Assembly: GCA_001899335.1 (NCBI GenBank)
Contig: MOYE01000004.1
Location: 198,264-262,263 of the forward strand
From: Candidatus Gastranaerophilus phascolarcticola
GTDB lineage: Bacteria; Cyanobacteriota; Vampirovibrionia; Gastranaerophilales; Gastranaerophilaceae
Direction: 5' to 3'
Length of the DNA: 64,000 bases
Shown: one piece after another, positions 5,251 through 49,461 of the stretch
Position numbering within the stretch: position 1 is the stretch's first letter
How the letters are laid out: each line of letters opens with the position of its first letter
Position numbers and translations under genes: made by a program
Notes under the pieces: generated by a model
Seen by the model: only the letters and a program-made list of their open reading frames with translations
Told to the model about the DNA's origin: nothing
Database searches by the model: none

Positions 5251-5310
5251 TATAAACTCCTTTTACTTTTTGAATTATATTTTTTATCGGAATTTTTTGA
5301 AAAAACTTTA

Positions 5311-5340
5311 ATAAAAAAAAACTCTATCAGATGATAGAGC
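5311..5340 (-). terminator. intrinsic terminator (minus strand) after the comF operon
   Basis: On the minus strand, CTCTATCAtcTGATAGAG (perfect 8-bp stem) is followed by a run of 9 T. Confidence 0.8.
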
Positions 5341-5543
5341 TTTGGAATCTTGTTTAATTCCTCATGTGTGTGTAGAAGGTTAGTGTGTAGTAGGTAGTGT
5401 GTGTTAGTTTTATAATCTCGTGTTATTTAATGCTTTGTTGTTTTGTTTGACTTACGTCTTACATATTGATAAAGTATTTTTGTTGTATATAATTGCTATA
5501 TACCTTTTATTTCTTTACAATTTGTTACAAAACATCTGAGGAA

Positions 5544-5828
5544 TTATATTGTTTTTGCTAACACGTAATGTTCGTAGCTCAGTGCGTAATTATAAAGGGC
5601 GTTTATAAGCACCCTGCCGCTTTCTGATTTCCCGATTATTAAATATTCGTTGTATTTATTTTGCGCTAATGTTATTTCTGAATGGATAATCTTTTCTACA
5701 TTCGTTTTAGGGTTTTTCGACATAATAAATCTAATCCACTCCGCCAAAATGTTTACAGCAGTGGACTTGTTGCTGATTATTTCATCGTTTTTTGTCTGTA
5801 TATATTTTGAAAATTCTTGTAATATCAT
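5544..5828 (-). CDS. hypothetical protein (94 aa)
   Basis: The ORF start overlaps the comF stop (ATGA), suggesting translational coupling. No recognisable motif. Confidence 0.45.
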   Translation of the reverse strand: MILQEFSKYIQTKNDEIISNKSTAVNILAEWIRFIMSKNPKTNVEKIIHSEITLAQNKYNEYLIIGKSESGRVLINALYNYALSYEHYVLAKTI

Positions 5829-6469
5829 GGGTTTGGTGTCGTTGTTGCAAAACAGGTGATGTCATTGATTCCTGCATTTTTAAGTGTCCTAATCATCTCG
5901 GCAAAGGTTGAGCCTGTTGTGCAAATGTCGTCTATAATCAATATTCTACCACAGTTATATGCATTTTTATTCACTTTAAACGCGTTGTGTAAGTTTTCCG
6001 CGCGCTCTGCAGGTGATAATTTATATTGGGGTTTTGTGTTTTTCACGCGGGTGATAAGTTTTGTGTTAAGTGTATAACCCGAAAGTCTGCAAAATTCTTC
6101 GGCAACAAGTATCATATGATTGTAGCGGCGTTTGTATTCACGGTCTTTGTGAAGCGGAACCGGTACAACCTCAAAGCCACTTTCGTCAGTAATATTTTGC
6201 CAGTATTCCCACATAAATTTTGCCTGATAAAAAGCCAGGTCGCGTTGGTTGTGGTATTTAAGCCCGCGGATAAGTTTCTGCAAATTCTTGTCATAAACCC
6301 CTGCGACATAAACGCTTACGCCGTCCAGGGCAAGGCGTTTGCCGAAGTTCAGAAATTCAAGGCTGTCGTAGCATTTGGAACACATTTTGACGCTTTCGTC
6401 AGAACGGCGGCAAAAGTAGCATTTCTTTTTATAAATCCAATCAAGAAGTCCTATAAAAAATGTCTTCAT
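5825..6469 (-). CDS. comF: ComF-family phosphoribosyltransferase-domain protein
   Basis: 214 aa. N-terminal Cys4 pattern CYFCRR...CSKCYDSL and C-terminal PRTase motif ILIIDDICTTGSTF. Confidence 0.85.
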   Translation of the reverse strand: MKTFFIGLLDWIYKKKCYFCRRSDESVKMCSKCYDSLEFLNFGKRLALDGVSVYVAGVYDKNLQKLIRGLKYHNQRDLAFYQAKFMWEYWQNITDESGFEVVPVPLHKDREYKRRYNHMILVAEEFCRLSGYTLNTKLITRVKNTKPQYKLSPAERAENLHNAFKVNKNAYNCGRILIIDDICTTGSTFAEMIRTLKNAGINDITCFATTTPNP

Positions 6470-6475
6470 GGCAGC

Positions 6476-9400
6476 CTAGTCCATACTGAAGATTTCTTTA
6501 ATGTCGTCCATCGTAAGCGATTTGGTGATGTTTCTGTCTACCGAAATTACGCTGTCAACAAGGTTCCGTTTAAACATTTTGAGTTTTTGAATTTTTTCTT
6601 CAACCGTATTTTTCGTGATAAGACGGTAAACAAAAACTTTTTTCGTTTGTCCGATACGATAAGCACGGTCTGTTGCCTGGTCTTCAACGGCAGGGTTCCA
6701 CCAAGGGTCGTAGTGGATTACATAATCCGCGCCTGTGAGGTTCAAACCTGTACCGCCGGCTTTCAAGCTGACAAGGAATATCGGAATGTGCGGATTGTTG
6801 TTGAATTTCTCAACTGCGCCCTGACGGTCTTTTGTCTTACCGGTGAGGTATGAGTACGGGATTCCGGCACGGTCAAGCCAATCCTTAACAATATCAAGCA
6901 TTTCGACAAATTGGCTGAACAACAGTACGCGGTGTTTTTCAGAGATAATTTCTTCAAGCATAACTTTGAGTTTTTCAAATTTACCTGATGACATAATGTG
7001 TTTAACATTGTCTTTGTCGTAAAGTCTCGGGTGACAGCAGATTTGACGTAAACGAAGTAATGCAGAGAAGATTGAAAGTCTACTTTTTTCCAAACCGTTT
7101 TGTTCGATAGATTTGAAAAGTTCTTCTTTTGTGCTGTCGAGAACCTGTAAGTAAAAATCCCTTTGTTCGTCTGTAAGCTCGCAGTATGCAATGTTTTCGA
7201 CTTTATCCGGCAAGTCTTTCGCAACGTCGCGTTTCATACGGCGCAGGATGAACGGATAGATTTGAAGTTTAAGACGTTTTTCAACGATTTTGTCAGCGCG
7301 TTCCATAATAGGGTTGACATAACGATAGTTGAATTCGTGCATATCGAACAGAAAGCCCGGCATAAGAAAGTCAAATACAGACCAAAGTTCTTCAAGTTTG
7401 TTCTCGATAGGTGTACCTGAAAGCGCCAATTTGTGGGTTGATTGAAGTTTTTTGACCGCTTGCGCTGTTTGTGAACCCGCATTTTTGATGTTTTGGGATT
7501 CATCAAGGATTATGTAACGGAAGTTGTGTTCTTTAAGTTTTTCAATATCGCGGCGAACTAGTGCGTAACTTGTTATTACGATGTCGTATTCAGGAATTTT
7601 TTTGAATAAGGCTTTACGCTCGGTTCCGGAAATTTTCAGACAAGTCAGTTCCGGTGCGAATTTTTGAATTTCGGATTCCCAGTTGAAAACTACGGTTGTC
7701 GGGCAGATAACAAGTGTCGGCATAGGACCGTCAACGTCTTTTGCTTTTTGAATAACCGTGAGTGCTTGAAGTGTTTTACCAAGACCCATATCATCCGCGA
7801 GAATGCCGTTAAGTCCGTATTTGTACATAAACCACAGCCAGCCAAAACCTTTTTGTTGGTATTCACGAAATTCAGCATTAATTGCTTTTGGAAGTTCTGT
7901 TGAATCCGCGGTTGAGAAGCTGGACATTTGTGACCAAAATTCTTCAAATTCTTTACTTAAAATTGTTTCAACGTTTAGGTTTTTAAGTTCATTAATTAAA
8001 CCTGCGCGGTATGTTTTTACGATGAATTTGTTTTCATCGTTGCGGAAAACGTCAAACGAGTTGAATGCGCGCATAAGTCCGTAAATATCCTGTGCGGGAT
8101 ACTCGACAAACCCTAAACTTCTGATACGGCTGTATTTTTCACCGCCCTGAATTGTGTCGTACATTTCGTCAAAGTTAACGATTTCCTCGCCTGCGCGACC
8201 GTAAAGGTAGATTTCAAATGAGTCTTTTGTCTCTTTACTGAAATCAATGTCGGCGCAAAGTTTGAACGGATCGTCAAGGATTTTGAAGAAATTCATGTCA
8301 TCTTTTTCAATGAATTTCCAGCCTTCGCCTGCTTGTTTGATGTGATAGTTATAAAAATCAATTGCGTTTTCTTTTTCGAGTGCAAGGTTGTTTGTCTGCA
8401 TCGGAACAAAACGGCAGGCAAGTAGCATATTGTATGCCTCTTGTTCGTGTTTTATGTTACGTTTAATCCAGTAAACCAAATCTTCGTTAGGTTTTTTGAT
8501 TGTAATGTACGGAACCTTTTCGCCTGTAGTTTTTGAGTACGGAACACGAACACCATCGTATTCAAATTCCAGTGATGCTTTTAGAGATTGGTCGTAATCT
8601 ATACCAAGGGTTACAACATTGAGCGGCGGACGCTCTTCAAGCATTAATTTTGAAATATTTTCCGCGATATTAACTTTCATAATCTGCTGGATTTCAGGAA
8701 GATCTTCGTGGATAAATTTTCCGCCTTCAGCGTCTTTTAGTTCGGTGAAAGATGCTTTAATAATATTTGCCGGCAGCGCTTGCATTGCAATATTTGTCGG
8801 GAAAATAATGTTTTTATAACGACCCCATTTGAGGTGTTTTGAGAAATAACGGACTTCTTCAAACGGATAAATTTCATCTTTGCCCGGGCGTTCCCATTCA
8901 AGTGACAAAAGAAGTGTGCCGCTCTGACCGGTGTTGACGGTTAGCGAAAGTTCCCATTCTTCGTCTGTAAATTTGAGTCGTTCTTTGGTTTTTTCGTCCA
9001 AAACTTCATCCGCTTTTGCGAGAAGTGAGAACATAGGACCGAATTTTGTGATTGGAATATCATACCAGCCGGCTTTTTTATCCTGACGGGCGATAGTTAA
9101 AAGCTGTTGGAAAATTGCGACTTCAACTTTTTGTGCGTTATTCAGTTCAAAATCAGGATTTTGACGTTGGGTTTCAATAAGCGCACGTAAAATACTTTCG
9201 ATTTGGCGTACGATTTTGCCGGTTTCTCTTGAGCGGACAAGGATTGAAAAGAAGTTAACTTTTCTTTTTGAGTTGAAGTGGAAAATATAACTTCCGGTCG
9301 GCTCTTCTGTTAAAGCAGTGTTTTCATCAGGGTAATCAGTTTCAATACCGTATTTTGTCTCTAACCAGTCTTCATAGGCGTGTTCGTTAATAGCCTTGAG

Positions 9401-14558: not shown

Positions 14559-16392
14559 AATAATTCAATACTCCCTCAACAATAGCTTTTGCTGTTTCCT
14601 GCTTTCTTTTTTCCGTCACGAGAAGTTTTTGTTCCGCCTCGTTTGAGATAAATCCGATTTCGCAAAGTATCGCAGGAATTTCTGTATGATTTATAACATA
14701 AAACTTAGACTTAAACAAGCCTCGATCAAAAGGTTTTAAATTACTAATCAATGCCTCGTGAACAGCTTGTGCAAGCCCCATGCTTTCCTGGTGATAGTAA
14801 TGGGTTTCGACACCTTCGATTTCAGGTTTGACACTGGAGTTTACGTGAATACTTACGAAAATTTCGCCTTTTTCTTTTGCGCTTATTTCTACACGGTCTT
14901 GAAGAGAAATATATTCATCAATGCTGCGTGTCATAATAACTTTGTGACCAAGTTTTGTTAATTCTTTTTGAACTTTTTTCGCAACATCAAGAGTGATGTC
15001 TTTTTCGTTGACTTCGCCCCGGATTGCGCCATAGTCGGTTCCGCCGTGACCTGCGTCAATGACAATGCGTTTGGACGGAATTTTGCTGGACGGAATATTA
15101 AAGAGTTGTTTTTTACTTCTTGCGGTCTCTTTGAGTACAACTTTAATAGATTTTCCGTCTGCGCCAAGGTAGGTGTTAACCTGTGAATCCTGTCTTAGCG
15201 GAATATAAATTCTTACGCCTACACCTTTTTCTGCGCAAATTATCTTTGCGTTCCAGAAGAACGAACCGGCAAAATTTGATTTGAACTGTTCTTCATTGAA
15301 TTTTCCGGCATTATAAAGCGTTAAAATTAGCGCATTGTTTTTCCTGTCTACACTGTGAACGACCGGATAATCAAAGTTCAGAGTCATTGATTGGGTGAGG
15401 TCATTGATTTCGGTCGGAATATATTGTGTCGCTTGAGCGCAGCCTTGTATTAGCTGTGAGGTATCGTAAGTTTTTTGGTTAATAAACAACACGGATTGGT
15501 TGTCTGCTGCGATTACCGGAACGTAATCATCAACATTGTTCGTATAAATAACCGCACGAATTTTGTTTATTGAAAACTGTCCGATTGCGATTTTGTCAGT
15601 TGCGTTGATTTGATACTCTTTATTACGGACTTCGCCGGCGGACAGTGCATTCGGGAAATCATAGATAAGCCTTGTAGGATTTTGTAAAACCATCGGTTTT
15701 TCAAATGTCATTTCACCGAAACCACTCAAAAGTACGGAGTTTGGTTTTGTTGTAACATTGTTTAAATAGTATTTTGTGTTCAGTTTGAACTTTTTGAAAT
15801 CCGGTTCATCCTTTTGTACCGCAGGAGTTTCAGCGGGTTGGACGTTAAATGCATTTTGAATTTCGTTTGCCATATTTACGGCAGGAGGTTCCGGATATAC
15901 TACTTTTAGGTTTTCATAAAAATCGCTTGATGAGGCATGTTCATCACGATAAATATGTTGATAATAATCATTTTGAATATCGTTACCGTTTAGGCGCATT
16001 ATGATATTATTTTTTATACGATAAAATTTAATGTCCTTAAAAACTTTGTCGGTTTTTGGATAGAAAACAACACGGACAATGTTTGGATTATTTTGAAACT
16101 GGCTGATTATAACCCTGTCAAAATTTCCGTTTTGGAAAATCCAGTCTTGTTTTGGAATAGTAAGTACAGTTGACTCTAAATCAAAATAGTATCTGGTCGG
16201 GTTTTCGAGTTTTTTGAGGGTTATGTTTTCTGCGATGTTGCCTTCAAATGTGTCTTTCGCGCTCAACGTAATTATGGCGTTAGAAAGGTCGTAATTTGCC
16301 GACATTACCCTGAAATCTGCGCCAAAAGCTGATCCGGCAAATACAAATATCATTATTAAAAAGATTTTAAGAATATGAAAAAATTTTCCCAT
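14545..16392 (-). CDS. N-acetylmuramoyl-L-alanine amidase (Amidase_3) with long N-terminal AMIN-like region
   Basis: 615 aa. Signal-like N-terminus. C-terminal IVIDAGHGGTDYGA...SIHVNS...LCEIGFISN, typical of AmiA/B/C-type amidases. Confidence 0.85.
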   Translation of the reverse strand: MGKFFHILKIFLIMIFVFAGSAFGADFRVMSANYDLSNAIITLSAKDTFEGNIAENITLKKLENPTRYYFDLESTVLTIPKQDWIFQNGNFDRVIISQFQNNPNIVRVVFYPKTDKVFKDIKFYRIKNNIIMRLNGNDIQNDYYQHIYRDEHASSSDFYENLKVVYPEPPAVNMANEIQNAFNVQPAETPAVQKDEPDFKKFKLNTKYYLNNVTTKPNSVLLSGFGEMTFEKPMVLQNPTRLIYDFPNALSAGEVRNKEYQINATDKIAIGQFSINKIRAVIYTNNVDDYVPVIAADNQSVLFINQKTYDTSQLIQGCAQATQYIPTEINDLTQSMTLNFDYPVVHSVDRKNNALILTLYNAGKFNEEQFKSNFAGSFFWNAKIICAEKGVGVRIYIPLRQDSQVNTYLGADGKSIKVVLKETARSKKQLFNIPSSKIPSKRIVIDAGHGGTDYGAIRGEVNEKDITLDVAKKVQKELTKLGHKVIMTRSIDEYISLQDRVEISAKEKGEIFVSIHVNSSVKPEIEGVETHYYHQESMGLAQAVHEALISNLKPFDRGLFKSKFYVINHTEIPAILCEIGFISNEAEQKLLVTEKRKQETAKAIVEGVLNYFGQE

Positions 16393-16639
16393 AATAAAAA
16401 TTATAATCCCGCGAAATCAAGTGCGCAAAAATGTAAAGTTATATCAAAAATTTACCCCTATACAAAATCCCTATTATATGATACTATATTCTTAGATGTA
16501 GTAGATAATTATTTTTTATAATATATGCAATGACAAATAAAACATAATTTTAAATAATAAATTTTATGAGATACCTGATAGGTTATATGTATCAGGCATT
16601 GTATATCTTATCAAAAAATAGAAAAGGATAAGAGCATTT

Positions 16640-18163
16640 ATGACTAACATTTTATTAGTTATTGCTGTCATAGCGGTAATTGGCTTGACAGTCGTGCTGT
16701 TTTCGCAGCAATCCAAGGTCAAAAAGGCTTTAGCTGAAGTTGAATTTCAGAAAAAAACAATTTCGGAGAAAGAAAACCTTTTGTTAAAAGAAGCTAGAAT
16801 TAAAGCAAAAGAGGAGTTACAATCCGACAGGGAAAAACTTAACGAAGAAGAAAGAGAAAGACGTCAAGAGTTCGCAAGATTAGAACAAAAACTTACTAAA
16901 AAAGAGGATATGCTTGAAGATAAAATTCAGGAATACACCGAAAAAGATTTAAGTGTTCAAAGAAAACTTGATGAATTATTAGAAAAAGAAGATTATCTTG
17001 CAGATATTGTTCAAAAACAAACAGAAGAACTTGAAAAAATATCAGGGCTTTCTGCTGAAGACGCTAAAAAAATGCTTTTAGAGCAAATTAAAAACGATTT
17101 AGCGCAAGAACAAATGCAATTAATAAGAGAAAATGAAGCAAAAATAAAAGAGATTTCGCAAGAAAAAGCAAAAGAAATTCTCTCAACGACAATGCAAAGA
17201 TGTATGATTGAACAGGTTGTTGAAACAACGGTTTCAGTTGTTGCATTGCCAAACGATGAGATGAAAGGTCGTATTATCGGACGTGAAGGTCGTAACATCA
17301 GAACGCTGGAAACTTTGACCGGTGTTGACTTAATCATTGACGACACGCCGGAGGCTGTTGTTCTTTCCGGTTTCGACCCAATCCGCCGCGAAATCGCGAA
17401 ATTAACGCTTGAAAAATTAATCGTTGACGGACGTATTCACCCGGTTAGAATTGAAGAAACCGTTGAAAAAGCCAGAGAAGAAATCGACAAGAAAATTTGG
17501 CACGAGGGTGAAAACGCAGTTCTCGAAATGGGCGTTATGGGCTTAAATAAAGAGTTAATCAAAACTTTGGGACGCCTCTATTACAGAACAAGTTACGGTC
17601 AAAATGTTTTGAAACACTCAATAGAAGTCGGTGCTATTGCCGGCATGCTTGCTGCTGAAATCGGTGCAAACGTAGCAGTTGCAAAACGTGCAGGACTTTT
17701 GCACGATATCGGTAAGGCTGTAGACCAAACTCAAGAGGGTACGCATATTCAGCTCGGTGTTGAGCTTGCAACCCGCTACGGCGAAAAACCTGAAATTGTT
17801 CACGCAATTGAGGCGCACCACGATGATGTCGTTGCAAACACAATCGAAGCGGTTTTGGTAAAAATTGCCGATGCTATTTCAGCAGGCAGACCAGGCGCAA
17901 GACGTGATACTTTAGAAATTTATATTAAACGTCTTCAAAAAATTGAAGAAATCGTTAACAGCTACGATGGTATTAAACAATCATTTGCTGTTCAAGCAGG
18001 ACGTGAGGTTAGAATTATTGTTCAGGCAGAAATGTTTGACGATTTAGCCTCTCAAAAACTTGCCCGTGACGTTGCAAAACGTATCGAGGATGAACTCGAT
18101 TATCCGGGTCAAATAAGAGTTACGGTTGTCCGTGAGTTTAGAACGACAGAAATAGCTAAGTAG
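16640..18163 (+). CDS. rny: ribonuclease Y
   Basis: 507 aa. N-terminal TM helix, long coiled-coil region, KH motif [12 protein letters not shown] and HD motif LLHDIGK...EAHH. Confidence 0.95.
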
Positions 18164-27433: not shown

Positions 27434-27473
27434 ATTGAATGTAGCCGAGATTGATTGGTTGCGACCCAAAGGT

Positions 27474-27546
27474 GGGGGATTAGCTCAATTGGTAGAGCAC
27501 CTGCTTTGCACGCAGGGGGTTAGGAGTTCGAGTCTCCTATTCTCCA
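27474..27546 (+). tRNA. tRNA-Ala (anticodon TGC)
   Basis: 73 nt, hand-folded. Acceptor GGGGGAT/ATTCTCC includes the G3:U70 alanine identity pair. D-loop AGCTCAATTGGTAGAGC, anticodon loop CTTTGCAC and T-arm AGGAGTTCGAGTCTCCT. CCA is not encoded. Confidence 0.9.
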
Positions 27547-27552
27547 AAAAAG

Positions 27553-27645: not shown

Positions 27646-28398
27646 TTAGTATGGTAAAACTCTTACTACTTTATACGGAATTTTATTTTTTATCAAAAAT
27701 TCGCCCCATTCAATTTGCTCGGGTTTTATGATTTCATTCTTTCGTTTGACTTCAACAAAAATCATTTCCTTATTATTCCACACGATATAATCTGGTGTTC
27801 CGACGGGATTCAGATTATAATCATCTAGCGTATGTTTTAGAATTTTACAAAAAGTTTTATTATTGACTTTTGCTAAAAATTCTTGCACAATGGGCGATTT
27901 AAAATATTTTGTTGGATTTTTATAGCCTTCTATTTCCCACTCATCAAGCCAGCGAATATATGAACCATGCTCGTGCTTTGTAAGTTGGGTGTTGATAAAT
28001 TCTTGAATATTAGATTTCTTAATTAAATTTAATTTTTGATTTAATTCTTCTGAAGTAACATTTTTGTTTTCAATATCAAAAAATTTGATTTCTGATTTGT
28101 GATTCAATGTTTGAGGATATAATTCATCAAGAAAGCTAAGAGCAAAGACCCCTTTCCAGAAAGAATATTCCGTACGCATTACTTGATAACCTTCATTTTT
28201 ATAATGCTCTCTAACAACCTGTTCAGTTGAACATTTTTCTCCATTTGAACAATAAAAATAATTTTTACCAAGTTCTCCTGTTTTCGGTGCAGGAATTGTG
28301 ATTGTATTTTTAGTAATTTTTTTGGACAAAACTTGTTTTGCTAATACGTATTGAGCAAAACATATTAAGATTAAAATTGTTACTAAAAACTTTTTCAT
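27646..28398 (-). CDS. VRR-NUC (PD-(D/E)XK) nuclease-domain protein with N-terminal signal-like peptide, FAN1-like
   Basis: 250 aa. C-terminal GTPDYIVW...IFVEVKRKNE...QIEW matches the VRR-NUC D..ExK..Q pattern. N-terminal MKKFLVTILILICFAQYVLA looks like a signal peptide. Confidence 0.6.
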   Translation of the reverse strand: MKKFLVTILILICFAQYVLAKQVLSKKITKNTITIPAPKTGELGKNYFYCSNGEKCSTEQVVREHYKNEGYQVMRTEYSFWKGVFALSFLDELYPQTLNHKSEIKFFDIENKNVTSEELNQKLNLIKKSNIQEFINTQLTKHEHGSYIRWLDEWEIEGYKNPTKYFKSPIVQEFLAKVNNKTFCKILKHTLDDYNLNPVGTPDYIVWNNKEMIFVEVKRKNEIIKPEQIEWGEFLIKNKIPYKVVRVLPY

Positions 28399-28732: not shown

Positions 28733-28762
28733 AGGTCAGGAGTTCGAATCTCCTAACCTATA
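28733..28762 (+). other. orphan tRNA 3' fragment (T-arm plus acceptor strand), possible att-site remnant
   Basis: AGGTCAGGAGTTCGAATCTCCTAACCTATA contains the T-stem/loop AGGAG-TTCGAAT-CTCCT. No matching 5' acceptor strand lies upstream, and the acceptor differs from the nearby tRNA-Ala. Confidence 0.55.
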
Positions 28763-28864: not shown

Positions 28865-28892
28865 TTTAAACGGCATTTAAATGCCGTTTAAA
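28865..28892 (-). terminator. perfect 28-nt palindrome, likely terminator of a decayed minus-strand gene
   Basis: TTTAAACGGCATTTAAATGCCGTTTAAA, followed by a T-rich stretch on the minus strand. It lies 25 nt past the stop of the fragment at 28917-29105. Confidence 0.5.
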
Positions 28893-28916: not shown

Positions 28917-29105
28917 TTACATTCTTTTAATAAACGAATTTGATATTCCAAAATGATTAAAATTCAATTGCAATTCAAAATAAAAATTGAATTCCAAAAA
29001 AATGTCATCTTTGAAGTTCCATGAATATTTATTTAGCTGAGTTTGGCGATAAATTTCAAATGCCTCTTTAATCTCTTTTGCAAACTTTTTCCTAAATATT
29101 AAATA
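28917..29105 (-). pseudogene. headless C-terminal gene fragment of unknown family
   Basis: 62 codons, open between TAA stops and with no start codon: YLIFRKKFAKEIKEAFEIYRQTQLNKYSWNFKDDIFLEFNFYFELQLNFNHFGISNSFIKRM*. Confidence 0.3.
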
Positions 29106-29205
29106 TTATAGAAATTACAGAATAATACCATTTTTGAAATACTGTTGTGACAAAATAATAGATATAATAATTTTGTAATATAATAGAAAACAAGGGTAAG
29201 TAGTA

Positions 29206-30567
29206 ATGAACAAAGATTTTATATTAAAATTAGTTAGACCGCATTTAAACTCAAAAAACGAATTAACTTATTTTGAATTTGAGAATATATTTGGCTCTTG
29301 GAAACGACAAGAACAGTATGAAATATGTGAAATTTTAGAAGATCTGGGAATTATTCTTGTTGATCAAAAAACTGCAGAAGCAAATGACGATAACAATGTT
29401 ACTGAAATTAATAAAAAAAATAAAAAAGAAATTATTATAACAAAAGCTGATATAGAAAATACTACAAGCCATACCAAAGATGGATTTACGGATATTAAAT
29501 TAGATATACACGAAAATTGTGATGAAAGACTTGCTATATTATATCAAAAAACAGATTATAGTTATTATATCGACAAATTAATACAAAAACATGTTGGTTT
29601 TATACGGAAAAGGGTTAATATAATAGGGAGATATTATAATCATAATTTTGAAGAGGAAGAACTTTTACAAATCGCAAAAATAGGATTTATGAAAGGGTGC
29701 AAACGTTTTGATATAAATAAAGGCAAAAATTTATTAACATATGTTGGTTGGTGGATTGATCAAGCTTTATATAGAGAAATTATAAATAATGGTTTTTTAG
29801 TACGATTACCTGTTCATATATGGGATAAAATAAAAAAAGTGACAAAATTTTTATCTTCAAATGATGAAACTGATATAGAGTATTTTTTAGAAAAGGAAAA
29901 CATATCAGAAGCAGAGTATGATGCAATTATTCAGTATCAGCAAAAATATTTAAATCCTGCATCGTTAGATGCTCAAATTGGTAATTGTGAAAATGTAGAG
30001 TTAATTGATGCAATATCTCAAGATGTACACTGTTTTTTAAGTAGATTTGCGGAAGCAGATGAAATATTGGAGGAAAAAGATTTGACAGATCTAATTCGCT
30101 ATATTTTAAATCAGTTATCTGCAAAAGAAAGAAATGTGATGATTTTGCGCTGCGGACTTGATAATAATGGAAGAGAAAAAACATTAGAAGAGATCGGGCA
30201 GCAGTATGGTGTATCAAGAGAAAGAATTCGTCAAATTGAACATAGAGCAAAAGCTAAAATATCAAAAATATTGAGAACAAATATTAATCCGGATGACGAA
30301 ATTATACAAGAGATGAAATCTAATACTCCAATGGAATTTGATAAAAATTATTTCTTTAAAAAGAATAATGTTTCCTATGTTCCGGAATTATCAGAAATGA
30401 TTGATCGTATTATAGATCTTAATAGTCAAGAAGACAATAATGAGAATTTATATGAAAAATTTAAAATTTGTGCCAGTCAAAATGGATATAATATTAAAAA
30501 TCTTAACAAGAAAGATATCTTAAATAAATTTAATCAACGAAAGGATTGTTATGTACGAAATAATTAA
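29206..30567 (+). CDS. sigma-70-family protein (RpoD-like regions 2, 3 and 4) with extra N- and C-terminal regions
   Basis: 453 aa. Region 2: LLQIAKIGFMKGCKRFDINKGKNLLTYVGWWIDQALYREIINNGFLVRLPVHIWDKIKKV. Region 4: LSAKERNVMILRCGLDNNGREKTLEEIGQQYGVSRERIRQIEHRAKAKI. Very AT-rich. Confidence 0.85.
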   Translation: MNKDFILKLVRPHLNSKNELTYFEFENIFGSWKRQEQYEICEILEDLGIILVDQKTAEANDDNNVTEINKKNKKEIIITKADIENTTSHTKDGFTDIKLDIHENCDERLAILYQKTDYSYYIDKLIQKHVGFIRKRVNIIGRYYNHNFEEEELLQIAKIGFMKGCKRFDINKGKNLLTYVGWWIDQALYREIINNGFLVRLPVHIWDKIKKVTKFLSSNDETDIEYFLEKENISEAEYDAIIQYQQKYLNPASLDAQIGNCENVELIDAISQDVHCFLSRFAEADEILEEKDLTDLIRYILNQLSAKERNVMILRCGLDNNGREKTLEEIGQQYGVSRERIRQIEHRAKAKISKILRTNINPDDEIIQEMKSNTPMEFDKNYFFKKNNVSYVPELSEMIDRIIDLNSQEDNNENLYEKFKICASQNGYNIKNLNKKDILNKFNQRKDCYVRNN

Positions 30568-33500
30568 AAAAAATTATACTGACATCAAGTCTGAATTAGA
30601 TTTAGCAAAAGGCATTATTGTACAAAAAGGATTCTCTATCGATATAGAAGATAAAATAGATATACAAAATTTATTCAATAAAGGACTTACTGCAAGTTGG
30701 GTAGAATTATATTCATCAAAGAGAAATATAATAACTTACGAAGAATTTTTATATTTTTACAACTTTATTATTAATGAATATGAAAACATTTATGTAGTTA
30801 ATAATAATATTTATAATAATTTTTATCCATTAAGTGTTGAAATTCCATTGGAAACAAAATTATTATTAAAAGATTTTTTTAGTGAAGATGTTGACGATAA
30901 TATATCTAATGTTCAAATTCTTGATGGCGAAAAATATACAAAAATTTTTTCTAACATAAAAAAAATAAATGAGAATTATTTTGTTAGATATAATGATATT
31001 TTTGAAATTGAAAATATTAAAATTAAAAATATAAATTTGTTCGACGCTGATAATATACAACCTCTGATTACTAAATATAAAGATGAATTATCTTCAGATA
31101 ATGTGTTATTTATACAAGAAACAGAGGATTACCTCTTTGTTTTAGAAAAATTATTGAATAATCAAGAAATATGCGTAAATCTTGATTCATATATCGGAGA
31201 AGATTCGATTAATAATAAACTTCAAATGATATCAACATACATAACTCCAATAACTATAATTAAATTAGAAGATAAAAATGAAGCACTGCAAACTGATCCA
31301 AAATTTAAAGAAATCTTAAAAAAATATTGGAAGCATGATTCTTTTAGAGATTTAAAAGTCTACAACTTTGAAAAAATAAAACATGGCATTAAAGAAATAG
31401 AAAAAATTTCGCAGGAAGACATTATCAGTGATATAGTTAATCAAGTTGAAATATTCAAAAATAATCCACAAGCCGATTATAGAGATATTTTTGTAACCGC
31501 ACCTACTGGAGCTGGCAAATCTGCAATGTTTTATATTCCAGCAATGTATTTAGCAGAGAAATATAATCTTGTAACTCTTGTAATACAACCCTTAATAGGC
31601 CTAATGAACGACCAAGTATCTAATATAGAAAAATTGGGCTATAAATATGCTAAAACAATAAATTCTGATATTTCTCAAATTGAAAAAGAAGAAATTATGG
31701 AAAAAATAAAAGAAGGTAAATGCCACATATTGCATTTATCTCCAGAATCACTACTAGCAAGAAATGATATCTCACAAATAATTGGAAATAGAAAAATAGG
31801 GATGATTGTTATAGATGAGGCTCATATCGTTACAACTTGGGGTAAACAATTTAGACCGGATTATTGGTATTTGGGTGATTACATAAAAAAATTAAGAAAA
31901 AAACAAACAATTGAACTCCATCCTTTTTTAATTACTACTTTTACAGCAACTGCTATTTATGGTGGTGAAGAAGACATGTATAAAGAAACTCTAAATAGTC
32001 TAAATATGCGTTTCCCAATAACCTACTTAGGATATGTAAAACGTGATGATATTGAAATAGAGATATCTGAATTAAAAAAGGAAACAAATAAAGAACAGTA
32101 TCAGCGAGACAAATTTGATTCATTAATTCAGGTAATTAACAGAGCTATTGGAACAAATAAGAAATTATTAATATATTTTCCTACAGTAAAATTAATAGAT
32201 TCTTTTTACACGTACTGTACCTCGAAGGACTTAAATAAATATATTGCACGATATCATGGACAAATGCAGGGCGACGATAAAAAAGAAAATGCAGAATTAT
32301 ATAAAAATAAAGAAAAACTTGTGATGCTGGCAACAAAAGCATTTGGTATGGGGATTGATATTAGTGACATTGAAATAGTTTGCCATTTTGCTCCAACTGG
32401 TAATGTTTGCGACTACGTACAAGAGATAGGAAGAGTCGCAAGAGATCCAAATTTAAAAGGTGAAGCAATATATTCTCATATGTCGAATGATTTTCAGCAT
32501 ATAAATAGGCTTCATGGTCTTTCTGCAGTAAAGAAATATCAATTGATTAAAGTTATACAAAAGGTGTATGAATTATATGAAATAAAATTAAAATCAGAGA
32601 ATTTAGATAATGTTCGTTTATCTAAAAAACGTAATGAAATGCTTGTAGATGCAGAAAACTTTACATATATTTTTGAAGGACCTTTGGAATCTTCTGAAGA
32701 TGAGCTTATCGCAAAAGTTAAAACTGCATTATTATTAATTCAAAAGGATTACACCTCAAAAATGGGCTTTTCACCTTTTGCAATGCGACCTTCAACATTA
32801 TATGCTCAAGGATTTTTCCAAATATCAGATGAGATTGTAGATAATTTAATTAAAAGATATGGTACTTCAACTTTTAAAGTATGTTCTTCAAAACATAAAG
32901 TATATTTAGTTAATTTGCAAAGAATATGGGAAAAAGATTATGGTAAAAATTATTCATTCCCTAATTTTAAGCGTTTATTATATACTTCAGATAAAGAATT
33001 AGAGAGTTACAATTTAAATAAATTAATACCTGCAACTCGCATAAGTTTTGAGTACATTGCAAATGAAACTAGTAGAAGAATTCATAATGCAATTATTAAT
33101 ATTTTGAGAAAATCTGCCTATGAAGATATATTTTTACAAGTCGAATCGAATGGCAAAAAAGATGCAACAAAAAATATTTCTGATTGTATAAGTGTAAGAT
33201 CAGGAATATCAACATTTAAAGCAAACGGAATTGCAAATATTTTAATTTCAACCATAAAAAATTATGCAAGAAATTATAGCAAGTCTATGAACGCTAAGAT
33301 CTTGGATTCACGACCAATAAAAACAGGAACTGATATATATAGATTTAATCGTCCAATAGAAGATTTTATTGAATGGTTAATTGAAATTAAAAGTTTTATA
33401 AGTAACAATGTCGCAGAAGATGGAAAAATTTATATTGTGAGAAATCAATCACAAAAAACAGAAAAAGAAATTATTACAGCATTAGGATTACTTGAAGCAA

Positions 33501-33781
33501 TAAATTATCTTACTTTTGAGGCAAGTGGTGGATTAAATAGCCAAATATATATCTATGTCAACCAAACAAAAACGATGGAAGAAGTTATACGCAAACCAAA
33601 CTTTTATAATAACAGATTGCTTGAAAAAGTTGCCGACAGGCATAAAATATCTGTTGCTATGTTATCCTATTTATATCAAAATGAATTTACAAGTAATGAA
33701 ATTTGGGACTATATTGAAAATTACTTTTTAGGTATTGTACCAGAAGAAGTAATTTCTTTAAGAGATCAGCTAAGGAAGTAA
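30551..33781 (+). CDS. RecQ-like superfamily-2 DNA helicase with large unassigned N- and C-terminal domains
   Basis: 1076 aa. The ATG lies 17 nt inside the sigma ORF, after AAGGA. Motifs TAPTGAGKSAMFYIPAM, VIQPLIGLMNDQV, VIDEAHIVTTWGKQFRPDY, LATKAFGMGIDISD and QEIGRVARD parallel RecQ. I could not recognise RQC or HRDC domains. Confidence 0.85.
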   Translation: MYEIIKKNYTDIKSELDLAKGIIVQKGFSIDIEDKIDIQNLFNKGLTASWVELYSSKRNIITYEEFLYFYNFIINEYENIYVVNNNIYNNFYPLSVEIPLETKLLLKDFFSEDVDDNISNVQILDGEKYTKIFSNIKKINENYFVRYNDIFEIENIKIKNINLFDADNIQPLITKYKDELSSDNVLFIQETEDYLFVLEKLLNNQEICVNLDSYIGEDSINNKLQMISTYITPITIIKLEDKNEALQTDPKFKEILKKYWKHDSFRDLKVYNFEKIKHGIKEIEKISQEDIISDIVNQVEIFKNNPQADYRDIFVTAPTGAGKSAMFYIPAMYLAEKYNLVTLVIQPLIGLMNDQVSNIEKLGYKYAKTINSDISQIEKEEIMEKIKEGKCHILHLSPESLLARNDISQIIGNRKIGMIVIDEAHIVTTWGKQFRPDYWYLGDYIKKLRKKQTIELHPFLITTFTATAIYGGEEDMYKETLNSLNMRFPITYLGYVKRDDIEIEISELKKETNKEQYQRDKFDSLIQVINRAIGTNKKLLIYFPTVKLIDSFYTYCTSKDLNKYIARYHGQMQGDDKKENAELYKNKEKLVMLATKAFGMGIDISDIEIVCHFAPTGNVCDYVQEIGRVARDPNLKGEAIYSHMSNDFQHINRLHGLSAVKKYQLIKVIQKVYELYEIKLKSENLDNVRLSKKRNEMLVDAENFTYIFEGPLESSEDELIAKVKTALLLIQKDYTSKMGFSPFAMRPSTLYAQGFFQISDEIVDNLIKRYGTSTFKVCSSKHKVYLVNLQRIWEKDYGKNYSFPNFKRLLYTSDKELESYNLNKLIPATRISFEYIANETSRRIHNAIINILRKSAYEDIFLQVESNGKKDATKNISDCISVRSGISTFKANGIANILISTIKNYARNYSKSMNAKILDSRPIKTGTDIYRFNRPIEDFIEWLIEIKSFISNNVAEDGKIYIVRNQSQKTEKEIITALGLLEAINYLTFEASGGLNSQIYIYVNQTKTMEEVIRKPNFYNNRLLEKVADRHKISVAMLSYLYQNEFTSNEIWDYIENYFLGIVPEEVISLRDQLRK

Positions 33782-33813
33782 ATTGTATTAATATTAATCC
33801 TCTGCATATTGCA

Positions 33814-33823
33814 GGGGGGGGGG
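33814..33823. repeat. homopolymeric G10 tract
   Basis: Ten consecutive G in a region otherwise about 20-25% G+C. It is continuous with the 3' arm (TGCAGGGG) of hairpin CCTCTGCA-TAT-TGCAGGGG, just after the helicase stop. Confidence 0.9.
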
Positions 33824-33934
33824 TAATATTAAAAAGTTATGAGGTAAAACATTTATTTTAATTATCATATCCTGATGATATTTTGTTCGGGTATGATGTA
33901 AGTTGATAAAAGTTTGGCATTTGTTCTGCATATC

Positions 33935-34024
33935 TTAAAGCATACTGTGAACAGTATGCTGATACCTGCTTCCTACTCTTGTACCGTCTTTTGTCCAGTA
34001 CTCAACATGATATGTGTCCATCAT
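33935..34024 (-). CDS. possible 29-codon small ORF with a strong Shine-Dalgarno sequence
   Basis: AAGGAGGTATAAAGCT precedes ATG ATG GAC..., giving MMDTYHVEYWTKDGTRVGSRYQHTVHSML*. Its 3' end contains the perfect inverted repeat GCATACTGT-GA-ACAGTATGC. Confidence 0.25.
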   Translation of the reverse strand: MMDTYHVEYWTKDGTRVGSRYQHTVHSML

Positions 34025-34553
34025 AGCTTTATACCTCCTTTATGTTAATTTGACACAACCCTATTGGAATGTCGTTATTTTTCTTTTTTGTTTAAAAATA
34101 TTTTTATGATCATTGGAATTTTTTCATCATATTTTGACCCAATATTAGGGTTTAAATCTGTTGCTGACACGAAATCCTCATATGCGCAGATATAATTCTT
34201 TAATCTATGATTGGCTAAACCTCTGTAATAATAGGCTTAATATCGTCTTCAAGTTCCAAAGTTTGATTAAAATCTTTGGTTGGAATACAACTTACAAACA
34301 CAAACTCAAAAAGCACAATCACCTATCTGACAGAATTTCAGAGATTTATAATTTTACAGAGTTTGAGTATTCAGACATTAACAGATTGCAGAGGCAATTT
34401 CAGAGGTTGATATTACAAAAGAAGCCGCTTGCATTGTCCATAATAAGGCAAAAAGTTTTAGAAAGATTGTAGAAATGATTGATATGTTTGAAAAAGTCGG
34501 ACAAGCAAATGGGCTAATCAAAATTGATGAAAATATATCTAAGGAGGTGCTTG

Positions 34554-46816: not shown

Positions 46817-47296
46817 TTATACTATATATTTTTGTAAAATAAGTTTTTTTAATGCACGAGCATTCACCGCATCAGGCTCAAGTTGAAGAAGTTTTTCAAG
46901 ATATTCTAGCGCAGCGTGGTAGTTTTCAAGTTTTTTCTGAAGAGCCGCCATTGCATAAAGTGCATCAATGAATTTCGGGTCAAGTTCGAGCGCTTTTTCC
47001 AAATCTTCTGCGGTTTTTTGCAAATCAGGATTAATATCTTTTCTTGTGAGGTTTATATAAGCGCGGTTGTAATATGCATCGGTCATACGGGGGTTGAGTT
47101 GAATTGCCTTTGTATAATCAAGCATGGCATCGTCAAATTTTTCGAGAGCCTGCGAAGCAACGGCACGATAAAAATAAGGAATTTCCCAGTCGCGTTTGAG
47201 CTCAATGGATTGATTAATTTTATTAATAGCGTCATTAAACCTTCCGTTTCGTATATCAAATATTCCGTCGTCTAAAAGTGTTTTGTAGTCTGTCAT
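46817..47296 (-). CDS. tetratricopeptide-repeat protein
   Basis: 159 aa with three or four TPR units (e.g. YFYRAVASQALEKFDDAMLDYTKAIQLNP and AYYNRAYINL). Confidence 0.8.
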   Translation of the reverse strand: MTDYKTLLDDGIFDIRNGRFNDAINKINQSIELKRDWEIPYFYRAVASQALEKFDDAMLDYTKAIQLNPRMTDAYYNRAYINLTRKDINPDLQKTAEDLEKALELDPKFIDALYAMAALQKKLENYHAALEYLEKLLQLEPDAVNARALKKLILQKYIV

Positions 47297-47305
47297 AAAT
47301 TTTCC

Positions 47306-48355
47306 TTATTGGTTAATTATTTCATCTATATATTCTTGCCATTTTTTTGTTCTGTAGAAAAGTGCGCGTCTACTCATTCGTTTATAATAAGGGCGTATGT
47401 TTTCATCCGTAATTATTACTTCTTCATATTTGCTCTTAATCTTTTCTGCAAACCTGTTGACAAGTGCATATTCTTTAAATGCTACACCAAGCATTTGAAA
47501 ATCAAAAACCGGTTTTGAAAGTGATTTATACATAATATTCGTAGTGGTTTTTGTTGTCTTGTATATTAAACAGTTTTTGAAAGCATCGTTACCAAAAATA
47601 GTTTTACACAAGTCTATGGAATCCTTAAATTTTTTTCTTAATTCTGCAATATTTTCCTCAATGTATTTTTTATTTGTTATTTCATTTTTTTTTGTCAAAT
47701 AATTATCTAAAAATTCTGCCATATTTCCGTTATAATGGGCAAAATCTTCATAAAGCGCAAGAAAACGCAAAACGTATTCTTCTTTTTCCATTCTGTCTAT
47801 CTTGGAATTATTGAAAAAAGTAGAAAAATTATTATAATTCGCAAGTTCCCGTATTAATTCCGTGTACGGACCATTGTGTATACAGTTCCGTATTTCCTGT
47901 GCATTAAGATGTACGCCCCCGGTATTAAATCGTTCAAATATGTCAAAAATTATTTTTTCATCCTCTACATTTTCTATTATTACAAGGTTTAATATATAGT
48001 TTAGGACTGTATTTTGAATACTTTGCGGCAATTCTTTATAATACAAACCGTTGAACTGTTCATAATGTGACAAACCTTTTAAAGGAAACAGGTTATTCAA
48101 AAAGTTTTTGATAGAAGTTAAGCGTTGCTGTCCGTCAATAACAACGTAGTTTCCCTCTTTTTCAAATAAATATATTGACGGTATCGGGAAAGAAAGCAAA
48201 ATAGTTTCAATTAATTTGCTTGCTTTTTCATTATCCCAAACATAGTTACGTTGAAAAATAGGCTGAATAACAATATTTTTGTTAGATATATATAAATCCT
48301 CGACTGTAGCATTTCTTGTATGCGCATATATTCGATTATAATATTCGACTGTCAT
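47306..48355 (-). CDS. DUF262 (ParB/Srx-like) domain protein without DUF1524/HNH domain
   Basis: 349 aa. QPIFQRNYVWDNEKASKLIETILLSFPIP and the VVIDGQQRLTSI motif. Confidence 0.8.
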   Translation of the reverse strand: MTVEYYNRIYAHTRNATVEDLYISNKNIVIQPIFQRNYVWDNEKASKLIETILLSFPIPSIYLFEKEGNYVVIDGQQRLTSIKNFLNNLFPLKGLSHYEQFNGLYYKELPQSIQNTVLNYILNLVIIENVEDEKIIFDIFERFNTGGVHLNAQEIRNCIHNGPYTELIRELANYNNFSTFFNNSKIDRMEKEEYVLRFLALYEDFAHYNGNMAEFLDNYLTKKNEITNKKYIEENIAELRKKFKDSIDLCKTIFGNDAFKNCLIYKTTKTTTNIMYKSLSKPVFDFQMLGVAFKEYALVNRFAEKIKSKYEEVIITDENIRPYYKRMSRRALFYRTKKWQEYIDEIINQ

Positions 48356-48396
48356 AGGTTTATTATATGTTATCTGATGATTATAGTAAAGGTGTA

Positions 48397-49461
48397 TTAA
48401 GAAATATAATTATCATAAATAATTTTGCCTACTTTATCCTGTAATTTTCGCAGAGCGGTTTTTAAATCCTGTTTACCTGATAATTCAGGGTTCAAAAACG
48501 GGCTCTTCTTAACAAAATTTATGTATTCCAAATAGATTTTGTCTGCGTTACGGCTTACTTCTGCCAAATCTAATTCTGCAAAGCATAACATTTGAATGTC
48601 AAAAACTTTTGATGAAAACGAACTGAAACCATACTTGTCACCCTTTTTCTCCCTTTTATAATTCTTGTAAGCATTGTTTTTAAATACAATTTTACAAGCA
48701 TCTACAGCTTTTTTAAAAGTTTTTTCCAATTCACGGGTTTGTTTCCTAAATTCTTCTGCGGTTAATGAATCTAAATGCTGCTTACTATCATAATACGCAG
48801 TAATGTAATTATTGATGTCGTTTAATGAATATCGGTTATTTTCAAACATTGCTAAAAAGCGTGCTGCAAATTCTTCTTTTGCCATACGTAAACTCTTGTT
48901 TTTGGGAATTAATTCATCGTATGGTGCGTATTTTGCTAAATTATTTTTGATTAAATCGTTAAATTTTCCCTCGAATACACAGTTACGTATTTCTTGCGGT
49001 TTTAAAGTCATAATACCGGTATTATATCTTTCAAAGATTTTGTAAATAATTTTCTTGTCAATAACATTTTTAATACATTTAGAATCTAATGTATAATCTA
49101 AAATTCTGTTTTGAAGTTGTTCATTAAGTTGGTTAAAATAAAAGCCGTTTAGACTTGGAATATCTTTGAGCCCGCTAAGTTTATAACTATTTTTTAAGAA
49201 TTTTCTGATTGCTGTTAACCGTTGCTGTCCGTCTATTACGTAAAATTTGCCGTCAACATGGTGATGATATAAAGAAATTGGCGGTATCGGCAAACCTAAT
49301 ATTATACTTTCAATCAAGCAGCTTGCTTTGTTTACATCCCAAACATATTGTCTTTGAAATGAGGGCTGAAGGACATATTTGTGTTCTTTTTTCTCATCTA
49401 AAAAGTCACAAACTGAAAAGTTTTTATTTTCAACTAATACATTATATTTTTCAAAATCCAT
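48397..49461 (-). CDS. DUF262 (ParB/Srx-like) domain protein, paralogue of its neighbour
   Basis: 354 aa. QPSFQRQYVWDVNKASCLIESIILGLPIP and YVIDGQQRLTAI. Colinear similarity to the neighbour along the whole length. Confidence 0.8.
   Translation of the reverse strand: MDFEKYNVLVENKNFSVCDFLDEKKEHKYVLQPSFQRQYVWDVNKASCLIESIILGLPIPPISLYHHHVDGKFYVIDGQQRLTAIRKFLKNSYKLSGLKDIPSLNGFYFNQLNEQLQNRILDYTLDSKCIKNVIDKKIIYKIFERYNTGIMTLKPQEIRNCVFEGKFNDLIKNNLAKYAPYDELIPKNKSLRMAKEEFAARFLAMFENNRYSLNDINNYITAYYDSKQHLDSLTAEEFRKQTRELEKTFKKAVDACKIVFKNNAYKNYKREKKGDKYGFSSFSSKVFDIQMLCFAELDLAEVSRNADKIYLEYINFVKKSPFLNPELSGKQDLKTALRKLQDKVGKIIYDNYIS

Follow-up and report, generated by a model that had tools for sequence, protein, structure and literature searches.

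The stretch of DNA analyzed here (the window, 64,000 nt) comes from Candidatus Gastranaerophilus phascolarcticola (assembly GCA_001899335.1, contig MOYE01000004.1, positions 198,264-262,263 of the forward strand) and carries two overlapping genes coding for a sigma-70 family protein and a RecQ-like superfamily 2 (SF2) helicase. Comparative genomic analysis revealed that this pairing is conserved in several phyla and on plasmids. The pair is interpreted, with a probability of roughly one half, as one copy of a widespread and horizontally mobile cassette that is a candidate defense module coupling a helicase to RNA polymerase.

Organization of the gene pair

The cassette has a length of 4.6 kb and consists of two uninterrupted open reading frames (ORFs), both with an ATG start, that share 17 nt in the six-frame ORF list:

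29206-30567, + strand: sigma gene, coding for a SigA-type sigma-70 family protein of 453 aa
30551-33781, + strand: helicase gene, coding for a RecQ-like SF2 helicase of 1076 aa (family C3a193)
30541-30545, + strand: AAGGA ribosome-binding site of the helicase gene, within the sigma ORF and 5 nt ahead of the helicase ATG

The ORF placement, overlap, and AAGGA motif given in a preliminary description of this DNA were all exact, as were its local G+C counts (13/60 and 33/60), and the contrast extends to the whole pair with a G+C content of 26.6% compared to 37.8% for the remaining window. Other dips in G+C were present at 16001-17000 and 47001-49000 (0.30-0.31 compared to approximately 0.39) and may represent further acquired segments.

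Conservation of the pairing

More than 2000 helicase relatives were identified in the database at E ≤ 1e-10, and the best 120 of these were almost all full-length (approximately 1070 aa) and originated from the Gastranaerophilaceae (up to 93% identical), Thermoanaerobacterium, and Clostridia. A scan of one representative genome per species, covering 185,579 species, gave 136 relatives from which 80 loci were retained, and synteny was counted by searching the ORFs of 84 loci with the window sigma. A sigma homologue lay directly upstream on the same strand in 71 of the 84 loci, while seven followed the order sigma, a UvrD-like superfamily 1 (SF1) helicase of approximately 655 aa, and RecQ-like helicase; three loci lacked upstream sequence and three were irregular. 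A same-strand sigma gene was consequently present upstream in 78 of the 81 loci with upstream sequence, spanning several phyla and including plasmids. The spacing in these 78 loci was also tight, with overlapping genes in 28 and a distance of 0-20 nt in 40 (68 coupled).

The reverse search, starting from two sigma homologues, again found the helicase adjacent, such that the pairing first described for the window proved to be syntenic and usually translationally coupled elsewhere. Pairwise identities of the sigma and helicase proteins from the 71 loci were strongly correlated (Mantel r 0.89, a value reached by 0 of 999 permutations). Synteny and correlated divergence together indicate a co-inherited operon rather than a chance neighborhood, and there is hardly any doubt that the pair is a real conserved operon.

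Two loci deserve separate mention. L043 (4695-13186) encodes two tandem large helicases with an SF1 helicase in between, and no sigma gene was detected upstream. L067, a “cleanbin” contig from a metagenome-assembled genome (MAG) labeled Escherichia coli, matches L066 from Phascolarctobacterium succinatutens in the order of its genes and the sizes of its ORFs; a binning error is more probable here than a genuine occurrence in E. coli.

The sigma protein is of SigA type

The sigma protein could be divided into the following segments:

29206-29370, + strand: region-1.1-like N-terminal domain, aa 1-55 (alignment; family profile against SigA; weak Pfam Sigma70_r1_1 match, E 0.036)
29605-29781, + strand: sigma region 2, for core binding, -10 recognition, and melting (Pfam, alignment, and sigma70 comparison)
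30106-30261, + strand: sigma region 4, for -35 recognition (Pfam, alignment, and sigma70 comparison)
30268-30564, + strand: C-terminal extension of approximately 100 aa with no known domain (alignment; Pfam)

Pfam identified Sigma70_r2 at aa 134-192 (32.8 bits; cut-off 24) and Sigma70_r4 at aa 301-352 (55.7 bits; cut-off 24.1). Beyond the weak region 1.1 match, Pfam found neither region 1.2 nor region 3 in the window sigma, while region 3 was detected in several of its homologues. The top NCBIfam matches were RpoD/SigA-type models rather than extracytoplasmic function (ECF) models, all under their curated cut-offs, and this ranking agrees with the earlier assignment of the protein as closer to primary-type than to ECF sigmas.

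An alignment of 31 helicase-linked sigmas displayed a conserved N-terminal domain of approximately 55 aa (..ELTY..F..LF...EQY.V..IL...I.LVD.), followed by a variable linker and regions 2-4. The family profile matched solved SigA structures nearly end-to-end (E approximately 1e-89, positions 15-351 against SigA 25-370). The preliminary description had counted about 110 N-terminal and 100 C-terminal residues as extra. The former correspond to the region-1.1-like domain and linker as in SigA, while the C-terminal extension is real and, in the same alignment, confined to the nearest relatives, which presumably represent the Gastranaerophilales clade. The extension gave no meaningful Pfam match at E values up to 5.

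Promoter-contact residues were compared to those of E. coli sigma-70. In region 2, Y179, W182, W183, Q186, and R190 correspond to sigma70 Y430, W433, W434, Q437, and R441, and in region 4, R338, E339, R340, R342, and Q343 correspond to R584, E585, R586, R588, and Q589, the latter five being invariant in the family. The window sigma additionally keeps H455 (sigma70 numbering, as below), and the equivalents of Y430, W434, R441, and H455 are likewise invariant across the family. Substitutions in the window sigma included Y425K, F427L, T440Y, E407I, and N409K, and the family is variable at the equivalents of 436 and 440, where -10 specificity is tuned. From these sequence comparisons we infer a predicted functional factor with a housekeeping-like promoter preference rather than a degenerate relic. 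Nothing unusual, unusually strong, or conserved was found among promoters upstream of the operons; the best candidates matched 8-9 of 12 positions, no more than AT-rich DNA is expected to give.

The helicase combines a RecQ-type motor with two regions of no known fold

Three regions were distinguished in the helicase:

30551-31462, + strand: N-terminal region, aa 1-304, confidently folded in the model and conserved in the family, with no known domain
31463-32512, + strand: RecQ-type motor core, aa 305-654 (Pfam, alignments, and structure search)
32513-33778, + strand: C-terminal region, aa 655-1076, modeled separately with a predicted local distance difference test score (pLDDT) of 87.7 and without sequence or structure match

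The RecQ core proposed in the preliminary description was supported by Pfam (DEAD and Helicase_C, aa 310-631) and by NCBIfam, where RecQ models were the best matches although all fell under cut-off (TIGR00614, recQ_fam, 168.2 compared to 219.8; TIGR01389, 193.8 compared to 640.2). The Walker A motif TAPTGAGKS, the DEAH box, the aromatic-rich loop WGKQFRPDY, and motif VI QEIGRVARD were invariant in 62 sequences. The AlphaFold model (pLDDT 84, predicted template modeling score 0.82) was searched against the PDB with Foldseek, and its core superposed on RecQ, RECQL5, BLM, and WRN (2.9-3.3 Å, E approximately 1e-20). TM-scores normalized to the full helicase were ≤0.31, and RecQ-type structures explain only approximately 400 of the 1076 residues. 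PADLOC identified a full-length match to model PDLC01089, C3a193 “poss. alt. Cas3” (E 1.5e-145, aa 63-1061 against 58-980 of 983).

Outside the motor, Pfam found no RQC, HRDC, RecQ_Zn_bind, or nuclease family in the helicase, and no cysteine is present in aa 633-700 where the RecQ zinc finger would sit. The N- and C-terminal fragments gave nothing meaningful in Pfam at E values up to 5, and when profiles of the two regions were run against PDB sequences (E up to 10), no match had an E value under 0.07. With the full model, all Foldseek matches in the PDB were RecQ-type cores and those among viral proteins were generic helicase cores, while the separate C-terminal model had no match above 0.12 probability except for a single 65-column match to HU. 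These profile and structure searches bear out the earlier statement that the flanking regions hold no RQC, HRDC, or nuclease motif.

An exhaustive HMMER search placed the C-terminal region in 437 clusters (50% identity). With few exceptions, the carriers have a length of 1030-1240 aa and contain the region at positions 650-1070, which makes it a signature of the C3a193-type helicase family. The modeled order of helix-helix-helix-hairpin and non-significant matches to RPC62 and Nse proteins (tandem winged helices) suggest tandem winged-helix-like units, which is a lead and not a result. A reading of the invariant D700, K722-x-K724, and Q731-K732-D733 as a PD-(D/E)xK nuclease was rejected because the lysines sit in a long helix and not in a strand.

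Three-gene variants and a branch without sigma

The pair is extended by a third gene in part of the loci. The approximately 655-aa UvrD-like SF1 helicase was added in 17 loci (L020-L022, L027-L030, L034, L037, L039, L040, L045, L046, L049, L053, L059, and L065), upstream of sigma in ten and between sigma and the RecQ-like helicase in seven. An example is:

L049, 7764-9731: UvrD-like SF1 helicase of a three-gene form

Another variant, found in 5-6 loci, encodes a longer helicase (1169-1185 aa) and, only a few bases downstream, a NERD-nuclease-plus-UvrD protein of approximately 570 aa, as in L087 (13521-15242) and directly downstream of the helicase in L015, L023, L048, and L054. This NERD-UvrD partner resembles cluster C3a187 from the paper that named C3a193. 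Both optional partners are DNA-processing enzymes and point to DNA as the substrate.

In viral sequences from IMG/VR, only five distant helicase relatives (31-36% identity) were identified and none had a sigma gene upstream. In three of these (L096, L097, and L098), a helicase of 1191-1195 aa with 31% identity was followed by a protein of 576-584 aa. More distant helicases of 1220-1245 aa were found on short contigs.

Distribution and gene neighborhoods

The 136 relatives were distributed over the Gastranaerophilales, Clostridia, Negativicutes, a Desulfovibrionaceae MAG, Mucispirillum, a Tenericutes MAG, Caldicoprobacter, and Thermoanaerobacterium. Many of the carriers are gut or anaerobic bacteria. 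Plasmid copies were found on plasmids of Lactiplantibacillus plantarum and on a conjugative plasmid of Enterococcus faecium beside a type I system, and other copies lay beside transposon or integrase genes. The plasmid-borne pairs include WP_053339270 and WP_053339271 on L. plantarum plasmid CP028223 and WP_231411327 and WP_227311111 on E. faecium pW142.

Genes related to defense recurred near the pair. It adjoins BrxC, methylase, SNF2 helicase, and PglZ genes of bacteriophage exclusion (BREX) type in T. xylanolyticum (strain LX-11, CP002739, approximately 1,032,300-1,036,500), a NERD-UvrD gene and a type I restriction-modification system in one MAG, and genes for a MutH-like endonuclease, C5 methylase, Vsr, and AspBHI/Mrr enzymes in other loci. 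The 124 nearest neighbors, given as raw counts, included five type IV and five type I restriction enzymes, five WYL proteins, three mad3, several methylases, reverse transcriptases (RT_UG17), two Csx1/Csm6, and two Cas1, amid ordinary metabolic genes. The enrichment of defense genes that the preliminary description had suggested looking for was thus seen as a recurrence of restriction, BREX, WYL, reverse transcriptase, and CRISPR genes in these raw counts.

The same description had considered that the pair might be a transcription module of phages. No full-length helicase relative was found in 50,697 phage genomes, where no record covered more than 42% of the helicase, and the distant IMG/VR relatives had no adjacent sigma. 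Judged by these phage and IMG/VR records, the pair is not a phage transcription module.

Flanking DNA and a common unit with a second locus

Several features surround the cassette in the window:

27473-27547, + strand: tRNA-Ala (TGC) (ARAGORN; Rfam tRNA, 68.4 bits)
28734-28755, + strand: partial, att-like repeat of 27518-27539 from the 3' end of tRNA-Ala (20/22 identical)
28865-28892, no strand assigned: perfect 12-bp palindromic hairpin, TTTAAACGGCAT TTAA ATGCCGTTTAAA, terminator-like on both strands, between the att-like repeat and the cassette
28917-29097, - strand: remnant of a small ORF found upstream of the cassette in L004, left end of the common unit (blastn, 84% identity; tblastx)
33849-34274, - strand: remnants of genes (a 56-aa ORF and a TPR protein) whose intact counterparts follow the cassette in L004, right end (L004 comparison)

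The att-like repeat lies 1.2 kb downstream of the tRNA-Ala and just upstream of the cassette, and the pattern had two matches compared to 0.01 expected. The repeat looks like an integration scar, and the tRNA-Ala is the likely integration site of the low-GC insert. The segment bracketed by the tRNA and the repeat contains a sole gene (27646-28398, - strand) for a 250-aa protein of the VRR_NUC nuclease family, which has a signal-peptide-like N-terminus and no match in PADLOC. This segment appears to be a small insertion of its own at this tRNA-Ala, and the hairpin sets the cassette apart from it. The genes within approximately 5 kb of the pair comprised LuxR, VRR_NUC, ABC-2 permeases, and small ORFs.

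Window positions 28917-34041 (approximately 5.1 kb) are common to locus L004 at 84-89% nucleotide identity and have different flanks. Outside this unit, genes that L004 has in intact form are reduced to fragments in the window, and the remnants at 33849-34274 show local decay. The “decayed island” of the preliminary description is therefore supported in part, as the flanks do hold remnants of genes intact in L004. In L004, a close relative of the window, the cassette (4712-8049) has 89% nucleotide identity to that of the window. It is closely preceded by Mu/Tn7-like transposition genes (rve/Mu-transpos_C and a TniB-like AAA protein) and may be transposon cargo there.

The patchy taxonomic range, the plasmid copies, the transposition genes of L004, the common 5.1-kb unit, the low G+C content, and the tRNA with its att-like repeat together indicate that the cassette is very probably accessory and mobile.

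Functional interpretation

A defense function of the cassette, either anti-phage or anti-plasmid, appears reasonably probable. The anti-phage role proposed in the preliminary description gained from the synteny, the absence from phages, and the defense neighbors, while the defense and RNA-polymerase roles are both still inferred. A possible mechanism is recruitment via RNA polymerase, in which the sigma and helicase proteins would form a complex and the sigma would dock this complex onto the RNA polymerase core. The helicase would then be delivered to promoter open complexes, where the melted bubble could act as a single-strand loading site in a manner likened to the loading of Cas3 by the Cascade R-loop, and it would unwind or strip the invading DNA. 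In the three-gene variants, the helicase might pass the DNA to its UvrD-like or NERD-nuclease partner. Recruitment is favored because the DNA-contact and melting residues and region 1.1 are under selection, the promoter specificity looks generic rather than private, and the optional partners are DNA-processing enzymes; as a specific mechanism, it is tentative and on balance doubtful. A bolder formulation, which is rather unlikely, holds that the mobile primary-sigma paralogue is either a targeting subunit that loads the helicase at open complexes on the invader or a bait for sigma-hijacking phage proteins, with the N- and C-terminal domains of the helicase as new folds that mediate the coupling.

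Several points weigh against the reading of the pair as a defense module coupled to RNA polymerase. Pfam, profile, and structure searches found no nuclease or other effector domain in the two-gene form, and a housekeeping-like promoter specificity would give no obvious rule for distinguishing foreign from host DNA; the missing effector and the absent self/non-self rule are the main weaknesses of any defense model. The case for defense comes from comparative genomics, the neighbor census consists of raw counts, and many copies lie among housekeeping genes with no defense gene near (L088, L094, and the window). The distant helicase relatives at 31-36% identity are also without sigma. Because this branch has a partner and no sigma, the sigma may be an accessory that joined an already existing combination of helicase and partner, and not be central to the mechanism.

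The helicase might alternatively act as the sensor and the sigma as its output, whereby the helicase keeps the sigma in an anti-sigma-like manner, senses phage DNA ends or replication intermediates, and releases it for a transcriptional response or growth arrest, the freed sigma either reprogramming transcription or sequestering the RNA polymerase core. Overlapping co-translated genes are typical of sigma/anti-sigma pairs, no effector domain was found in the helicase, and sigma factors reportedly serve as the output of immune sensors in CalpL-CalpT-CalpS and in the Craspase-linked CASP-sigma. This arrangement is nevertheless unlikely, as the sigma is primary-type and not ECF-type, the operon promoters are ordinary, and the UvrD-like and NERD partners indicate DNA processing as the end-point; furthermore, the -35 contacts follow the housekeeping consensus while the -10 tuning positions vary, which argues against a common private regulon. 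The likeness to host SigA could also serve as a decoy or guard that is bound by phage sigma hijackers or inhibitors, with binding turning on the helicase. AsiA-like and gp67-like phage factors target sigma region 4, and the best-conserved parts of the family are SigA surfaces, namely region 2 and region 4.2 (TLEEIG..YGV(T/S)RERIRQIE), that would allow function after transfer between phyla, while stoichiometric co-expression with the helicase suits a guard-effector pair. However, any functional sigma would be conserved in this way, a pure protein decoy would need neither the DNA-melting residues nor the region-1.1 domain, both of which are retained, no effector was identified, and the phage anti-sigma trigger is speculation, which leaves this explanation quite improbable.

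A role for the mobile element itself, in which the pair would help a plasmid, transposon, or integrative element to become established, to replicate, or to transcribe its genes, is of similarly low probability, if marginally higher than that of a decoy. Such a role would suit the occurrence on mobilizable and conjugative plasmids, the adjoining Mu/Tn7-like transposition genes and integrases, and the movement of a compact unit of approximately 5 kb. The pair has no tie to any single element type, though, and is frequently found with no integrase, transposase, or replication genes near it, its recurrent neighbors being restriction and defense genes rather than conjugation or replication genes; defense systems are in any case typical cargo of mobile elements. 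An ordinary stress or repair pair, consisting of an alternative sigma and a RecQ paralogue for chromosomal DNA repair, could be compared to the Bacillus subtilis RecS helicase with its operon partner YpbB, and both the RecQ-like motor and the copies among housekeeping genes would agree with it. It is very improbable given the rare and patchy occurrence (136 matches among representatives of 185,579 species), a composition foreign to the window, the plasmid-borne copies, the lack of RecQ Zn, RQC, and HRDC modules, and RecQ scores below cut-offs. Scarcely more can be said for an accessory helicase of type III CRISPR systems, i.e., an “alternative Cas3”, which is the least probable of these explanations. 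The full-length PADLOC match is to a cluster defined beside type III-B/D modules, and two Csx1/Csm6 and two Cas1 occur in the neighbor census; yet the original cluster has only three members, the great majority of the 84 loci have no cas genes adjoining the pair, no repeat array is present in the window, and Pfam finds no HD nuclease domain in the helicase.

Coupling of a helicase to transcription initiation on the invader would, if true, mean that bacterial immunity has a principle new to science. Stoichiometric pairing of sigma factors with DNA-acting enzymes is hardly ever found, and a primary-type sigma in an operon with a helicase suggests that a DNA motor is brought to RNA polymerase or that the polymerase is monitored, an idea that is unexplored. 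Should the cassette be a defense system, its mechanism would sense or exploit transcription initiation, a step that every phage must take over. The helicase also contains approximately 720 confidently folded residues without a detectable relative in the PDB that are worth solving. As a small self-contained cassette on plasmids of the culturable L. plantarum and E. faecium, and also in Thermoanaerobacterium, the pair makes the hypothesis directly testable.

Comparison with known systems

The sigma protein is similar to SigA/RpoD in the retained promoter-contact residues and, judged by the end-to-end alignment of its family profile to the B. subtilis, S. aureus, and C. difficile-type SigA structures, probably in an order of regions 1.1-(1.2)-2-3-4. 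It differs in being only approximately 35-39% identical to the housekeeping sigmas of its own clade, in scoring far under the RpoD equivalog cut-offs, and in moving horizontally together with the helicase. The helicase in turn has SF2 motifs I-VI and the aromatic-rich loop in common with RecQ proteins (E. coli RecQ and human RECQ1, RECQL5, BLM, and WRN). It lacks the four-Cys zinc subdomain, the RQC winged helix, and the HRDC domain present in bacterial RecQ, adds approximately 300 N-terminal and 420 C-terminal residues without known match, and is encoded beside a sigma factor.

NCBIfam (June 2026) and PADLOC 2.0 contained no model for a sigma-helicase pair, and no description of a sigma-plus-helicase defense pair was found in the literature outside subscription journals, where an earlier description is possible; a paper on BREX diversity names sigma only as a small helix-turn-helix domain in BrxL. 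The preliminary description had regarded the pair as undescribed, and this was upheld for the combination in these libraries and literature. Of the components, the helicase had already been flagged as C3a193, and a sigma-70 protein is already part of MZA (MzaA).

MZA (MzaA-E) is a validated anti-phage system with the sigma-70 family protein MzaA, which the sigma described here matches over the sigma portion. The score for NF041931 was 134.7 bits compared to a cut-off of 800 and equal to the generic RpoD score, and the PADLOC match to MzaA is considered unspecific because of this equality and because that library has no sigma model other than MzaA. In addition, MzaA has approximately 700 aa with a long non-sigma N-terminus, and no MzaB-E genes (MutL-like, Z1, and others) are present within approximately 5 kb of the window pair. 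An identity with MZA was rejected on the score under cut-off and the lack of MzaB-E genes.

PsyrTA/RqlHI is likewise a two-gene module, in which a RecQ-like helicase toxin depends on a small partner as antitoxin, and the helicase described here matches PADLOC PsyrT (E 1.2e-51). RqlI is reported to restrain the genotoxic helicase RqlH (PMC4670107). The match to PsyrT is confined to the motor (aa 312-635), and the partner is a full sigma encoded upstream instead of a small PsyrA/RqlI-type protein; an identity with PsyrTA was rejected on both counts. An identity with Cas3 was also rejected, as there is no HD family and Cas3 models match the helicase lobes only, and weakly. The likeness to Cascade-Cas3, Hachiman (HamAB), and Druantia III (DruH-DruE) is one of logic only, in that DNA is opened or recognized by a targeting or sensing partner and then passed to an SF2 helicase; HamB of Hachiman is reported to be a sensor helicase paired with a second protein. 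Only the generic SF2 fold is in common with these systems, no HD or other nuclease domain is present here, and the “targeting” partner would be a sigma acting via RNA polymerase, for which no precedent was found.

The closest known relative is C3a193 (cluster 193), to which the helicase belongs as a member of the same protein family. The cluster was described with three members beside type III-B/D CRISPR modules and one line on function, without mention of a sigma (Shah et al., 2018, PMC6546367). The family is far larger, with the 437 clusters carrying its C-terminal domain, and is found mostly away from CRISPR loci and with a sigma partner. The finding is more general than the preliminary description knew; helicase-based candidate defense modules are known, and it is the sigma partner that is unusual.

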